DNA from: a virus | Lineage: Duplodnaviria; Heunggongvirae; Uroviricota; Caudoviricetes | Length of the DNA stretch: 6,645 nt | Virus record (IMG/VR): IMGVR_UViG_2740892269_000011 | Direction: 5' to 3' (one strand) | Shown: in pieces, positions 1,710-6,645 of the stretch | Position numbering within the stretch: position 1 is the first letter of the stretch | Layout: each line of letters begins with the position of its first letter | Program-made: the position numbers and the translations under genes | The notes under the pieces: generated by a model | The model's input: only the letters and a program-made list of their open reading frames with translations | Database searches by the model: none | Told to the model about the DNA's origin: nothing

Positions 1710-2072
1710 GGGGCTGATTCTGGATTCGACGGGATTTGCGAAACCCAAGGTGCATGCCGAGGGGCGGTTGGCCTCGTAAAAAGCCGCAAAAAATAGTCGC
1801 AAACGACGAAAACTACGCTTTAGCAGCTTAATAACCTGCTTAGAGCCCTCTCTCCCTAGCCTCCGCTCTTAGGACGGGGATCAAGAGAGGTCAAACCCAA
1901 AAGAGATCGCGTGGAAGCCCTGCCTGGGGTTGAAGCGTTAAAACTTAATCAGGCTAGTTTGTTAGTGGCGTGTCCGTCCGCAGCTGGCAAGCGAATGTAA
2001 AGACTGACTAAGCATGTAGTACCGAGGATGTAGGAATTTCGGACGCGGGTTCAACTCCCGCCAGCTCCACCA
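1710..2072 (+). ncRNA. ssrA: tmRNA (SsrA, 10Sa RNA), 363 nt
   Basis: Starts GGGGCTGATTCTGGATTCGACGGGATTTGCGAAACCC and ends GGGTTCAACTCCCGCCAGCTCCACCA (tRNA-like T-arm and CCA). Contains the tag frame GCA AAC GAC GAA AAC TAC GCT TTA GCA GCT TAA TAA (ANDENYALAA). Matches the E. coli ssrA sequence from memory over the whole length. Confidence 0.97.
1799..1831 (+). other. ssrA: tmRNA mRNA-like domain: tag-peptide reading frame ANDENYALAA (resume codon GCA at 1799, tandem stops TAA TAA)
   Basis: Direct translation of 1799..1828 gives A-N-D-E-N-Y-A-L-A-A, followed by TAA at 1829-1831 and a second TAA at 1832-1834. This is the canonical enterobacterial degradation tag. Confidence 0.92.
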
Positions 2073-2270: not shown

Positions 2271-2834
2271 TTACGTAACATCAAACGCTCTAATTGTTCC
2301 CAAATCCTCCAGACCACTCAGCTCCTCTTTCATTTCACGCTGACGGCGATAAATCTCATCGTTGCGATCGACCTGCGCCTGCACCATTGCTGCCGCCAGT
2401 TCTTCCAGTTCCGGCATCGACAGTTTCACCTGCTGATTATCGGCATCACCCCACGCCATATGCGTTTGTGCTGTGACAGATTTTGCCAGCATGACTACCG
2501 GGGACAGGCGGCCCAGTGAGTCGGGGCCAGCATTCCAGATACGACCATTCCATTCAAACGTGAACGGCTTCGCCTCCTGTTCTGTGCGCCATGCTTCAAT
2601 TTCCTGACGTCTGGCCTCTCTGGCCGCTTCCAGCATTTCTGGTGTCACAGTGAATGGGGCTATCTCACCCCATTTGCCACTTTGCAGTTCCTGCCAGATT
2701 CGCTGACCCGTCGGTGCGACATCATCAGCGGTGGCTGTGTAGGGGACTGCCTGGTCCCTGTCGTCAAAAAAAACGTCACAGTCTACTGCGCCACTTTCGG
2801 TATAACGGGGATTAATGATTTTTTTAATTTCCAC
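2271..2834 (-). CDS. Hypothetical prophage protein in the tail-fibre-chaperone position; family not recognised (187 aa from GTG 2834; longest frame 207 aa from ATG 2894)
   Basis: Long open frame ending at TAA 2273..2271. GTG at 2834..2832 is preceded by GAGGA at 7-nt spacing and lies 10 nt after the upstream fibre stop (TGA 2847..2845); the alternative ATG at 2894 would overlap that fibre frame by 50 bp. The translation (…KPFTFEWNGRIWNAGPDSLGRL…ELEELAAAMVQAQVDRNDEIYRRQREMKEEL…) lacks the lambda Tfa / P2 gpG C-terminal signature, so a chaperone role is inferred from position only. Confidence 0.6.
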   Translation of the reverse strand: MEIKKIINPRYTESGAVDCDVFFDDRDQAVPYTATADDVAPTGQRIWQELQSGKWGEIAPFTVTPEMLEAAREARRQEIEAWRTEQEAKPFTFEWNGRIWNAGPDSLGRLSPVVMLAKSVTAQTHMAWGDADNQQVKLSMPELEELAAAMVQAQVDRNDEIYRRQREMKEELSGLEDLGTIRAFDVT

Positions 2835-2844
2835 GGTGCATTCC

Positions 2845-3342
2845 TCACGATGTGCGAATAAAAAGCCCGGGCATTGCGCCAGAGACATGAGCATCCGGCA
2901 CCCCGGACAGGGCGCTATATGACCCCGGTAATGAATGCTCTGAACATCCCGTAATGAAAAATTGTGGGGATGCTATATACGTTCCGGTGGGAGTACTGGG
3001 CACTGAAATCCCCACCGGTCCCAGTCGTGAGCCTCTGTATGACTGCCCCCTGACAAGTCTGATGACTTTATCACCGTCAGCTTCTCCCTGGTACGCAGCA
3101 ATAATCAGCCCGCCAATGTCAGGGTCTCCCCATCTGTTGCAGACAGAGCTCGCCACGATTCTGTAAATAATATCTTCTGTGGTTATATTTATTTTCACCC
3201 AGCCAGTCAGTCTGGATATGGGCCAGTAGCAGTAGCGGGTGTGATAAATGGGGCCGTTAATGCCGTAAAAAGTAAGGGATTTGGCTCTGTACCTCGGTTC
3301 TGTTGTCTCAGGGCGTGCATCAGTCCACCGGATGCTGAGCAC
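2845..3342 (-). CDS. C-terminal fragment of a disrupted second tail-fibre gene; unrecognised distal domain (frame open without a start codon up to 3549)
   Basis: ORF-track ORF of 165 aa starting at GTG 3342. My translation shows the same frame is open upstream to 3549 (…RKRTAFGFGCAFLPEDVIRFDTKSDFLAWVRNALPGEYSVAGPYDIIIPDTRFEGVLSIRW…) with no ATG/GTG/TTG, and the GTG at 3342 has no properly spaced SD. Best explained as the downstream part of the gene begun at 3869, in a different frame. Confidence 0.5.
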   Translation of the reverse strand: MLSIRWTDARPETTEPRYRAKSLTFYGINGPIYHTRYCYWPISRLTGWVKINITTEDIIYRIVASSVCNRWGDPDIGGLIIAAYQGEADGDKVIRLVRGQSYRGSRLGPVGISVPSTPTGTYIASPQFFITGCSEHSLPGSYSALSGVPDAHVSGAMPGLFIRTS

Positions 3343-3416
3343 CCCTTCAAACCGTGTGTCGGGTATGATGATGTCGTAGGGGCCAGCAACGGAATATTCA
3401 CCTGGCAGCGCATTCC

Positions 3417-3869
3417 TTACCCAGGCCAGGAAATCACTCTTAGTGTCAAAACGGATAACATCTTCAGGCAGAAAAGCACACCCAAAGCCGAATGCTGTGC
3501 GTTTCCGGCTGCGGCCCCGGCGCTCTGCTGCGCCTGCGCCACCATTTCCTCAAAGCGTTTGACGACATCCGGTTTCAGGTCGCCCTCATCAGGAGCAATC
3601 AGAAAGTCATTCAGCGTGCCGGGCTTTGAGTCGTCGTATACAGCAATGTCGCCAACACAGTACTCGTCGCGCCAGTCCCGTTTCAGATACACGCAATATT
3701 TTCCGACCTGTGCCTCAAACGAATATTCACCGTTATTTCCGGTCACTACATCAGCCCTGGTACGCATCACCACTTCTGAGGTGTTTACACGGGATTTCAG
3801 AATAATCTGGCATCCGGACATGGGGATGCCTGCGCCATCAGTCAGCGCACCTGATATCACTACAGACAT
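3417..3869 (-). CDS. N-terminal fragment of a side tail fibre (lambda Stf-like prophage tail-fibre N-terminal domain), truncated by a frame change
   Basis: MSVVISGALTDGAGIPMSGCQIILKSRVNTSEVV…GEYSFEAQVGKYCVYL…GDIAVYDDSKPGTLNDFLIAPDEGDLKPDVVKRFEEMVAQAQQSAGAAAG aligns motif-by-motif with the lambda Stf N-terminus as I recall it (MAVKISGVLKDGTGKPVQNCTIQLKARRNST…GTITVYEDSQPGTLNDFLCAMTEDDARPEVLRRLELMV). After the Ala-rich linker the frame decays into non-protein-like sequence (…LGVLFCLKMLSVLTLRVISWPG*). ATG at 3869 follows the upstream Tfa stop by 23 nt. Confidence 0.75.
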   Translation of the reverse strand: MSVVISGALTDGAGIPMSGCQIILKSRVNTSEVVMRTRADVVTGNNGEYSFEAQVGKYCVYLKRDWRDEYCVGDIAVYDDSKPGTLNDFLIAPDEGDLKPDVVKRFEEMVAQAQQSAGAAAGNAQHSALGVLFCLKMLSVLTLRVISWPG

Positions 3870-3892
3870 AGTTTTTCTCGCGATAAATTAAA

Positions 3893-4438
3893 TCAGGAAG
3901 AACCTTCCGGAGAGACGGACCATTCAATGGCGTTATATGAGGATTTATCAGTGATGGTGCTGAAATCCATCGCCTGCAGCGATTTCGCGTAAATACGGTA
4001 CGCTTTCAGTTTTTCCCGGTCTTCGTCGCTGATTAGCCCCAGCAGCAGGTCTTCTTCCCATTCCCCTGTCCGGGCACTGACCTGAGCCAGAAGGGCATCA
4101 CGCTCATCTTCCGCTTTGAGTCTGTAGTCAAAGACAAATTCATCATTGCGGTAAAACCAGTAACCCGGCGCGGTAATGCGGCGGTTGGCGGTAATATCAG
4201 GAACTTCAATAACACTGGCGTTACGGGGTTCAATGCCTGTCACATCCTTACCGACCCACACCACGCGCCCGTCTCCGGTGTAAACCATTTTTATGGTGTC
4301 ACTGGCAAAGTTCTTCTGTTCTTCATACCAGTTTTTGCCGTCTTCCGAAAAAAGCCAGGTGACATCATACTGTTTTGTCAGCTGATATTATTCCGCGGTT
4401 TTCGGATTACCTGCCGTAATATTTTTTAAATGCAACAT
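3893..4438 (-). pseudogene. Tail fibre assembly protein (P2 gpG / Caudo_TAP-like) interrupted by an in-frame TAA at codon 17 (4390..4388)
   Basis: From ATG 4438..4436 the frame reads [56 protein letters not shown]…SVIEVPDITANRR…EKLKAYRIYAKSLQAMDFSTITDKSSYNAIEWSVSPEGSS. It is continuous and gpG-like on both sides of the stop, with a Tfa-type C-terminus. The ATG lies 2 nt after the fibre stop (TAA 4443..4441). The track ORF 3893..4288 is the part downstream of the stop; its ATG has no SD. Confidence 0.8.
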
Positions 4439-4440
4439 TG

Positions 4441-5493
4441 TTAAATACTCGCTACGTTATACCAGGTGCCATTAATCAGTTTTTGCAGCGGTCGGTAATA
4501 CACGCCGTTGACGTTATCCGCTGAGTTACGGCCGGTATCCGATATCGATATCCCTGACAGCCCGTGTCCCGAAGGTGAGCGAAATGTCCACGAAACGGTG
4601 TTACTGCCGGGGGGGTAATACATTTCATAACCATACCGCACATCCTGCACGCCACCATTTCGCTGCTGGTAACGGGCATCAAAGTTTCCGTAGTCTGACG
4701 GTGTTACCCGTCCTGTAACGTTTACAGCTTTATTACTCTGGATACTGCCACTCTGAAAACGCAACACATGCACGCTATTGGCATAAACATCCAGCAGGCC
4801 ATCACCATTCTGTTTGAATCCGGTGTCATTATCACCAAGAACAATTGAATTCCCCCCCAGGGCGTTCTGAACGCCGATACCCAGCGCACCATTGACCTGC
4901 GAACCACCGCCAACAGACACTTTATGCGACATGGATATTTCACCCGTCCGCAGATTAATGGTGAACGGGCGCAGGGGACCAATATCGCCATTTTCCCCCT
5001 GACCTTCACTGGTGGGAATAAGGTGCAGGCACTCTTCCGAACGACGAAAAATCAGGCCAAAAGCTTCGTTGAAAATCCTCAGCGCATTAACACCACGGAT
5101 TTTCAGCTCTCCGGTCATGGTGTCGCCATCACGCTGAACGGCATTTTTTGCCTTATCCACCGTGGGTTTTAATCCGAGGTTTTCAACAGCCTCATCCCTG
5201 TCTTCCACATCCGAAAGGTTATTTTTTATCAGCAATGCCTCTTCGTTAATTGCACCGCCCACCAGCAATAATATAGCCTTATATAGCTGGTCGTGTTCTT
5301 CTTTATTCAGTTCTATCCCGGCCTTCTCAATGACACCACAGATTTCCTCCTGAATGGCATTCCACATGGCACTGTTCAGCCAGGTAGCAAGACGTCCTGT
5401 GCGAAGATTTCCGTCAGTAAATCCGTTCTTACCCGGACCAAACTTATCTTTTACCGCAGTCAGCGTATCAATCCTGTGCATCTTCATCCTCAT
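4441..5493 (-). CDS. Tail fibre protein with a P2 gpH-like C-terminal receptor-binding region, about 347-350 aa
   Basis: C-terminal half contains NALGGNSIVLGDNDTGFKQNGDGLLDVYANS…SDYGNFDARY…LINGTWYNVASI, matching the conserved distal part of P2 gpH-type fibres from memory. Three in-frame ATGs at 5493, 5487 and 5481; the last has the best SD (AGGA, 5-nt spacer). Followed 2 nt later by the Tfa start. Confidence 0.85.
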   Translation of the reverse strand: MRMKMHRIDTLTAVKDKFGPGKNGFTDGNLRTGRLATWLNSAMWNAIQEEICGVIEKAGIELNKEEHDQLYKAILLLVGGAINEEALLIKNNLSDVEDRDEAVENLGLKPTVDKAKNAVQRDGDTMTGELKIRGVNALRIFNEAFGLIFRRSEECLHLIPTSEGQGENGDIGPLRPFTINLRTGEISMSHKVSVGGGSQVNGALGIGVQNALGGNSIVLGDNDTGFKQNGDGLLDVYANSVHVLRFQSGSIQSNKAVNVTGRVTPSDYGNFDARYQQRNGGVQDVRYGYEMYYPPGSNTVSWTFRSPSGHGLSGISISDTGRNSADNVNGVYYRPLQKLINGTWYNVASI

Positions 5494-6058
5494 CTGGATA
5501 GGAAAATAAAACGACGGTGTGTGACGGACATAATTTATTAATCACGCACTCCGCAACCGTATCCCCCCACGTCCGGATCGGTGTGTTGCAGGCGTCCGTG
5601 CATGTCTGCCACTGAGCACCGGCATCCATCGGCAACGTCACACGCCAGAAATAACGCCAGCGATCTCCCCATTCCGGATCGGGGCTTGCATCCAAGTGCT
5701 GGAACTGTTCGATCGTTACGCCGGTATATCCCAGCGCCTCAAGCTGATCCAGGAAGAACTGCTCATTTATGCCACCAGCCACATTGGCTTTTGCTTCAAG
5801 ACGTTGCTGACGCTGGCGTAATGTCTGGGTTCCGACAGGGGAACAGGAATCAGGTAAACCATACAATTCTTCATAACGTTCAATCAGCTCTGTGGACTGA
5901 CCGGGATCGATTTCAATCACCAGTTCATCAGCCCGCTGGTGAACACGCACAAGCGATGGTGCCAGACCGTCAAGTACACCGTCGGTATCTGACCATGCAG
6001 GCCCCGGCGGCATCAGTCCGTACAGCAGCTTTGTATAATCATCCTGTAACGAATCCAT
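5468..6058 (-). CDS. Phage tail/baseplate protein, YmfQ / Mu gp48-like (DUF2313-type), 196 aa
   Basis: MDSLQDDYTKLLYGLMPPGPAWSDTDGVLDGLAPSLVRVHQRADELVIEIDPGQSTELIERYEELYGLPDSCSP…TLRQRQQRLEAKANVAGG… resembles e14 YmfQ-type proteins as I recall them. The start ATG overlaps the upstream stop as TAATG (6060..6056). Sits between baseplate J-like and fibre genes as in e14 and Mu. Confidence 0.7.
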   Translation of the reverse strand: MDSLQDDYTKLLYGLMPPGPAWSDTDGVLDGLAPSLVRVHQRADELVIEIDPGQSTELIERYEELYGLPDSCSPVGTQTLRQRQQRLEAKANVAGGINEQFFLDQLEALGYTGVTIEQFQHLDASPDPEWGDRWRYFWRVTLPMDAGAQWQTCTDACNTPIRTWGDTVAECVINKLCPSHTVVLFSYPDEDEDAQD

Positions 6059-6645
6059 TATTTACTCCTTGCCGGGTCATAAGCCTGCCAGGTGATCTCG
6101 CCGAGCACCGGAAGCTCGGTCTCCCCCAGGTCAATATCCGATGAAGGGACGATTAACCGGTGGGCCACTTCACCAGCAGACAAACTGATGGCCTCACTGA
6201 TTCTGGACAGATACATACGCCCCTCTGGCACACCATCCCGTAACATCAGTGCATTCAGCTCTGCTTTTATTGCAGTCCTGATCTGCGGTGTGTCTTTCGA
6301 TAATGCAATCGTCATCGGGATGACTTTTTCTGTGGCACCGAATACATACAATCCGCTTCCGGCAACAGGTGCCAGAGGAAGGATGTGGTCCCTGACTGCG
6401 TTAATCACGCTTTCATCCGGGGCCGGGCGTTCCGGATCGTTTGTCGCCACCATCACGCCAACCGTTCCAGTGCCTTTCCAGTGTCTGAAAGTCCATGCAC
6501 GGTTAATACCCTGAACTTCTTTCGCCCAGATAACATAATCAGGGTCTGCGCCCCCGGTGATGCTGCCAACTTACTGATTTAGTGTATGATGGTGTTTTTG
6601 AGGTGCTCCAGTGGCTTCTGTTTCTATCAGCTGTCCCTCCTGTTC
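6058..6645 (-). CDS. Baseplate J-like protein (Mu gp47 / P2 gpJ family), C-terminal portion; 5' end beyond the window; in-frame TAA at 6573..6571
   Basis: C-terminal sequence …GGADPDYVIWAKEVQGINRAWTFRHWKGTGTVGVMVATNDPERPAPDESVINAVRDHILPLAPVAGSGLYVFGATEKVIPMTIALSKDT…LGEITWQAYDPARSK fits baseplate J C-termini. My manual translation shows the same frame open from the window edge (EQEGQLIETEATGAPQKHHHTLNQ) to a single TAA at 6573..6571, then the J-like sequence. Alternatively the gene is a truncated remnant starting at GTG 6570 or GTG 6456. Confidence 0.6.

Follow-up and report, generated by a model that had tools for sequence, protein, structure and literature searches.

Is the single stop codon found near the beginning of a tail-fibre assembly gene (tfa) of Shigella sonnei a real allele and, if so, which codon has it replaced, can a chaperone still be made from the gene, and was the gene lost before or after the prophage that carries it? 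These questions are raised by one locus of the window, i.e., the whole stretch of 6,645 nucleotides that was analysed, which is the complete contig CWTS01000190.1 of the S. sonnei draft assembly GCA_001258935.1. With the exception of one deletion, it is 100% identical to a chromosome-sized S. sonnei contig (L027). The window contains ratA-smpB-ssrA and then the tail remnant of a Mu/SfV-type myovirus prophage, organized as follows:

1-97: end of an IS4, at the contig boundary
Between the IS4 end and ssrA: rnfH/yfjF, ratA, and smpB
1710..2072, plus strand: ssrA (tmRNA), flanking the prophage remnant (ARAGORN; Rfam RF00023, 295.8 bits)
2271..2894, minus strand: DUF4376 gene, the final gene of the prophage remnant (PF14301, E 1.5e-16)
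2845..3869, minus strand: second fibre gene (prophage tail fibre N-terminal, PF08400), broken by a 244-nt deletion
3893..4438, minus strand: tfa pseudogene, a 181-codon Caudo_TAP frame from ATG 4438..4436 to TGA 3895..3893
4441..5481, minus strand: tail-fibre gene (fibre 1), 346 aa as called, with a weak gp37_trimer match
5468..6058, minus strand: baseplate gene of the Mu gp48/YmfQ family (PF10076, E 2e-25)
6058..6555, minus strand: 3' fragment of the baseplate J/gp47 gene, cut by an IS1 (Baseplate_J_C gene calls; the J homology ends at 6555)
6556..6645: end of an IS1, at the contig boundary (the IS1 InsA/DDE genes adjoin it in L027)

Both contig ends are IS ends, the IS4 lying beyond rnfH and the IS1 cutting the baseplate J/gp47 gene; the IS1 end has a median of 10 matching places per E. 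coli genome. In the chromosome-sized S. sonnei contigs, the remnant extends further in the upstream direction and comprises GP46, Mu Gp45, a gpP-like gene, a DNA-circulation protein, a second IS1, and the tape-measure gene. The tmRNA is the sole Rfam family found in the window. Between ssrA and the last prophage gene, a strong hairpin with a T run behind it (aaaaaagcctctgattatgaagtcagaggcttttct) is located at 2197-2226 and is likely a bidirectional terminator at the edge of the element.

The frame of tfa is opened by ATG 4438..4436 on the minus strand (translation 4438..3890), and its codon 17 is TAA (4390..4388), the only stop within the 181 codons; the regular stop is TGA 3895..3893, and the C-terminal end reads PEGSS. 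The family sequence is unbroken on either side of codon 17. The initial annotation, which had described a single ochre codon inside an otherwise intact gene, was therefore right, coordinates included, as the minus-strand translation reveals. Once Gln17 is restored, the product matches the Pfam family Caudo_TAP (PF02413) with 87.7 bits (cut-off 22.1, E 9.4e-25) over residues 40-178 and the Mu U protein (PDB 5YVQ chain B) with an E of 8e-39, with residues 1-158 aligned; these matches and the 44-50% identity to Mu U, Mu U', and P2-like gpG bear out the proposed membership in the Tfa/gpG/gpU chaperone family. A gene of this family in working order is an uninterrupted full-length CDS, which the tfa of the window, with TAA at codon 17, is not; it is by descent a member of the Tfa/Caudo_TAP family that has become a pseudogene. 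As in other nonsense pseudogenes, a stop codon stands where relatives have a sense codon, the homology extends to both sides of it, and the lesion is reproduced in independent sequencing.

The tfa gene is located directly downstream of the 346-aa fibre gene on the same strand, the stop of the latter (TAA 4443..4441) ending 2 nt ahead of the tfa ATG, and this arrangement is kept in all the related loci. The 346-aa fibre is presumed to be the client of the Tfa chaperone. A fibre gene of 346 aa has also been called in the intact prophage L039, while an exact look-up of the 350-aa fibre ORF gave no match, because gene callers choose a later start (346 aa). Only a weak GAG precedes the tfa ATG 4438, about 10 nt upstream; this and the 2-nt gap, which recall Mu, where U follows S by 2 nt with a short annotated RBS, suggest that the translation of tfa would normally be coupled to that of the fibre gene.

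The comparison with known systems points to Mu rather than to P2. The tfa product shares with Mu U and U' (TfaMu; 5YVQ_B) 44% and 50% identity, respectively, over about 160 residues, as well as the N-terminal motif M-x-HLKNI...NPKT-x-EQYQLTK; as in Mu, tfa is placed straight behind a fibre gene with a 2-nt gap and has Mu-type gp45-gp48 baseplate neighbours. Unlike Mu, the locus is without an invertible G segment or a Gin-type invertase, and tfa is followed, on the same strand, by another fibre gene and by a DUF4376 gene; furthermore, the C-terminal roughly 25 residues differ from those of Mu U/U', and the gene of the window has the nonsense codon. P2 gpG belongs to the same Tfa family and conserves Gln17 (44-47% identity); however, the neighbours of tfa match Mu Gp45, GP46, Baseplate_J/gp47, and Mu Gp48/YmfQ, and the gpV/W/J/I/H neighbours of a P2-like (Peduovirus) tail module are absent. 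Thus, the label "P2 gpG-like" that had been given to this gene holds as far as the family is concerned, but the module is Mu-like by its neighbours, and Mu U' resembles the protein slightly more than P2 G does.

The intact E. coli prophages with a Mu-type tail L039 and L040 share 98.8% nucleotide identity with the window from J through tfa and encode the same 181-aa Tfa, except for the stop. Unlike the window, they harbor complete tail modules (sheath, tube, tape measure, and uninterrupted J) and CAA at codon 17, and their integration site is near potAB-phoPQ instead of at ssrA. An identical 181-aa Tfa (gene 10001-10546 in each case) is encoded by L039, L042, and L041, in three different fibre/baseplate backgrounds, i.e., a Mu/SfV-like one with a 346-aa fibre, another Mu-like one with a 366-aa fibre, and one with an E217-like baseplate and a Gp34_trimer fibre, which indicates that the fibre tip, tfa, and the second fibre have been exchanged as a cassette. 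A further Tfa, 86.7% identical to the window protein, is encoded at 42831-43373 of PP818812.1, by its label the Actinobacillus phage vB_Apl-pPE4; the Escherichia and Shigella phages of the collection all have a far less similar Tfa, and the labelled host is a strange one.

As for the codon that was lost, position 4390 was scored directly in the loci fetched by exact protein look-ups. Besides the window, T is present in 18 loci of the S. sonnei type, and C in the 24 other loci, which comprise the S. boydii-type copies beside ipaH, the ssrA-linked copies in two other chromosomes, and the intact prophages. Among the complete genomes labelled as E. coli that were searched, the closest match (NZ_CP065613.1) differs at 4 of 581 nt, one of them being CAA versus TAA. 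Gln17 is also found in all the close homologues that span the site (117/117, from the best 120 protein homologues; full length 181 aa), and it is invariant in the alignment of the tfa product with Mu U, Mu U', and P2-like gpG. The lesion can thus be read as one C-to-T change that turned CAA (Gln17) into TAA, as had been supposed initially; of the two codons that had been considered possible in sister strains, CAA or GAA, the former is the one carried by all 24 loci outside the S. sonnei type.

Taken together, these data lead us to consider the tfa of the window, with a probability of about 0.93, as a plain nonsense pseudogene in a cryptic S. sonnei prophage. No observation contradicts this reading, even though RefSeq-style annotation shows an intact CDS of 162 aa. 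According to it, a C-to-T transition would have occurred at codon 17 on the S. sonnei branch, and the ribosomes entering tfa by coupling from the fibre gene would stop after 16 residues, at UAA-U.

The reading has to account for the shorter products annotated at this locus, which begin at three internal starts:

4379..4381, minus strand: CTG (codon 20), 6 nt past the stop; the start of PGAP-style annotation, giving a 162-aa "tail fiber assembly protein" (P0170)
4286..4288, minus strand: ATG (codon 51), the first in-frame ATG past the stop, with no Shine-Dalgarno (SD) sequence; it opens the 131-aa ORF of strain Ss046
4262..4276, minus strand: GGAG (4276..4273), 8 nt, and then GTG 4264..4262 (codon 59), the sole SD-like internal start, giving a 123-aa fragment

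The products starting from CTG 4381, ATG 4288, and GTG 4264 are devoid of the first 19, 50, and 58 residues, respectively. The 162-aa product has been called on at least 1000 contigs, the 131-aa one (P0122/AAZ89357.1, Ss046) on 16, and the 123-aa one on 773 contigs (890 blocks) of the collection. In S. boydii, the CTG at codon 20 is annotated as the start although the upstream ATG and CAA are intact; a 162-aa call alone is therefore no marker of the TAA allele. For the same reason, the 162-aa proteins of S. boydii were rejected as a second, independent disruption, since they reflect an annotation choice only.

The initial annotation had stated that ATG 4288 lacks a Shine-Dalgarno sequence, which is seen in the sequence, and that the chaperone is probably not made. 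The latter statement can be maintained for the full-length chaperone, which would not be produced from the TAA allele of S. sonnei; the SD-preceded GTG 4264, however, had been missed, and a 123-aa fragment might be made from it.

It might then be asked whether a shortened Tfa, translated from GTG 4264 or by re-initiation at CTG 4381, keeps chaperone or other activity. The GGAG placed 8 nt ahead of GTG 4264 would speak for this, as would the span of the Pfam match (residues 40-178) and the retention of the C-terminal helical half. In the AlphaFold2 model of P0001, a 98%-identical homologue, this half has a pLDDT of 85-94, versus 40-60 for the N-terminal domain (mean 68); the model was built from a shallow alignment (43 sequences at >= 85% identity), and a helix occupies residues 15-24 within the low-confidence N-terminal domain. 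On the other side, in the alignment of the tfa product with Mu U, Mu U', and P2-like G, 28 of the 52 family-invariant columns fall in residues 1-50, that is, within the part affected by the loss of the first 19 to 58 residues. CTG is a very poor start codon, and no promoter-like site was found ahead of the internal starts. It has been reported that helix alpha1 of the N-terminal domain of TfaMu contributes to fibre binding (PMC9608196, secondary source), and it is on the conservation and on this literature that the structural cost of the truncation is assessed. Since no part of the family is better conserved than the absent residues, N-terminally shortened Tfa proteins are probably inactive; moreover, a functional fragment would be moot, because the prophage is unable to build a baseplate regardless. 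Retained activity of a fragment is, on balance, improbable. Somewhat less probable still is a domestication scenario, in which the stop would have been a step towards a shortened Tfa (the 123-aa product from GTG or the 162-aa one from CTG) retained for a host-side or fibre-related function, and in favour of which there is no observation.

A different objection would be that the true gene starts past the stop and that the 16 codons upstream of it are not part of the gene. This would agree with the 162-, 131-, and 123-aa products annotated by gene callers and PGAP, and with the choice of codon 20 by PGAP, which is made in S. boydii too despite the open upstream frame. Nevertheless, in 113 of the 120 best homologues the sequence starts with MLHLKNI, from the upstream ATG; the tfa product, Mu U, Mu U', and P2-like G hardly vary over residues 1-19; and 2 nt separate the upstream ATG from the fibre stop, matching the position of Mu U after S with its short annotated RBS. 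The N-termini of the 120 homologues and the Mu/P2 alignment rule out a downstream true start, which we regard as very unlikely; with it falls the possibility, foreseen at the outset as one that would undo the pseudogene interpretation, that all the homologues start at the downstream ATG.

As regards the reality of the stop itself, a sequencing or assembly error might be suspected, the window being part of a short-read draft assembly with one private structural difference (the 244-nt deletion). The TAA stop, however, recurs with the identical sequence in 10 independent Logan assemblies, which represent at least four run series, as well as in 8 long S. sonnei contigs; the latter include chromosome-sized ones (4.8-5.0 Mb), a closed 5.04-Mb chromosome among them, and the 53G draft (ADUU01). 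In addition, over 770 contigs carry truncated products. The presence of this T in 18 further assemblies rules out the error at 4390 that had been named as a possible refutation, leaving it a negligible probability. TAA can thus be regarded as a real allele and as neither a base-calling error nor a chance ORF. A 60-mer bearing it was found in none of 5,426 complete genomes labelled as E. coli, the best matches sharing 59 of 60 positions and carrying CAA. In the loci compared, TAA appears to be confined to the S. sonnei type and to be near-fixed in S. sonnei.

UAA-U is the strongest E. coli termination signal. Equally negligible is a readthrough of the stop, through programmed recoding or ochre suppression, that would yield the full-length protein: no support for it was found, and against it stand the UAA-U context, the absence of tRNA genes within the window, and the restriction of the stop to S. 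sonnei-type loci, with Gln17 in every diverged homologue (117/117 plus the Mu and P2 relatives), whereas a recoding site would be conserved across them.

The plain nonsense pseudogene being the preferred reading, its age has to be considered in relation to the decay of the prophage. In all the eight long S. sonnei contigs (8/8), one IS1 is inserted inside baseplate J, 1.7 kb upstream of tfa, and another lies beside the tape-measure gene. On the other hand, two loci, L044 and L046 (from the assemblies GCA_900159285.1 and GCA_900158265.1), share the same IS1::J junction as the window and still carry CAA at codon 17. Over 3.1 kb, 3-4 substitutions separate them from the window, one being the C at 4390, and about 2-3 separate them from further S. 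sonnei copies (e.g., L030); the remaining differences are private. On the basis of parsimony, since two loci with the shared junction retain CAA, the prophage was probably already dead (IS1 in J) when tfa gained the stop, even if a gene conversion with a second prophage copy as donor could in principle have restored CAA in L044 and L046. The IS1 insertions would thus have disabled the element first, a neutral decay of tfa would have come after, and the stop would then have risen to near-fixation in S. sonnei. The loss of tfa would have been without consequence at the phage level, because the element is already IS1-disabled in the eight long contigs.

The S. sonnei Tfa in its exact Gln17 form is still encoded on 18-21 contigs, one of which has S. 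sonnei as its source label. The inactivation of tfa itself appears to be young, given that the gene has one disabling lesion and that the repaired protein is identical to a protein that is intact elsewhere. The proposal of a recent inactivation rather than a long decay is consequently acceptable for tfa, with its single lesion and its live identical allele, but not for the prophage, which is an IS1-broken, long-dead remnant.

The lesion of tfa is an ordinary pseudogene, already visible in public annotation: its truncated ORF had been annotated in Ss046 (AAZ89357.1). Unlike the IS-driven decay of prophages in S. sonnei, it consists of a point nonsense mutation. Its biological weight is very small, as it adds one more neutral lesion to a prophage of a pathogen with hundreds of pseudogenes (about 660-710 in S. 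sonnei genomes; PMC12795559). Two practical aspects can be mentioned. First, automated annotation hides the pseudogene, RefSeq-style annotation by placing it behind a CTG-start CDS of 162 aa, and the three truncated "tail fiber assembly proteins" of 162, 131, and 123 aa from three starts, one of them CTG, inflate the diversity of the protein family in databases. Second, the CAA/TAA polymorphism and the common IS1::J junction together offer a small marker that can be dated and that records in which order the ssrA-linked S. sonnei prophage decayed.

Further variation was observed around tfa. In the window, the second fibre gene is interrupted by a frameshifting deletion of 244 nt with its junction at about 3493..3495 (window 3417-3869 and 2845-3342; L027 10396-11664), whereas in L027 and other S. 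sonnei it is intact and encodes 422 aa. The 150-aa product of the resulting ORF (3417..3869) is found on one contig only in the collection, CWTS01000190.1 itself, and the deletion is either private to the strain or an assembly artefact; a repeat collapse was discarded as its cause, the flanks sharing only a 3-nt GCA microhomology. In the fibre gene, position 4614 of the window is polymorphic in S. sonnei, with C in the window, L027, L002, L003, and L006, and A in the remaining S. sonnei loci and every outgroup locus; the C is therefore derived.

Lineage-specific inversions of S. sonnei have been described that comprise ratA-smpB-ssrA and the phage block linked to ssrA, with the flanking IS4 as the boundary (PMC12795559). 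In the S. sonnei chromosome CP044191.1 (L033 12547-20372), a further integrase-bearing prophage is located between the last ORF of the remnant and ssrA, from which it follows that the ssrA site has been reused after the decay of the first element.
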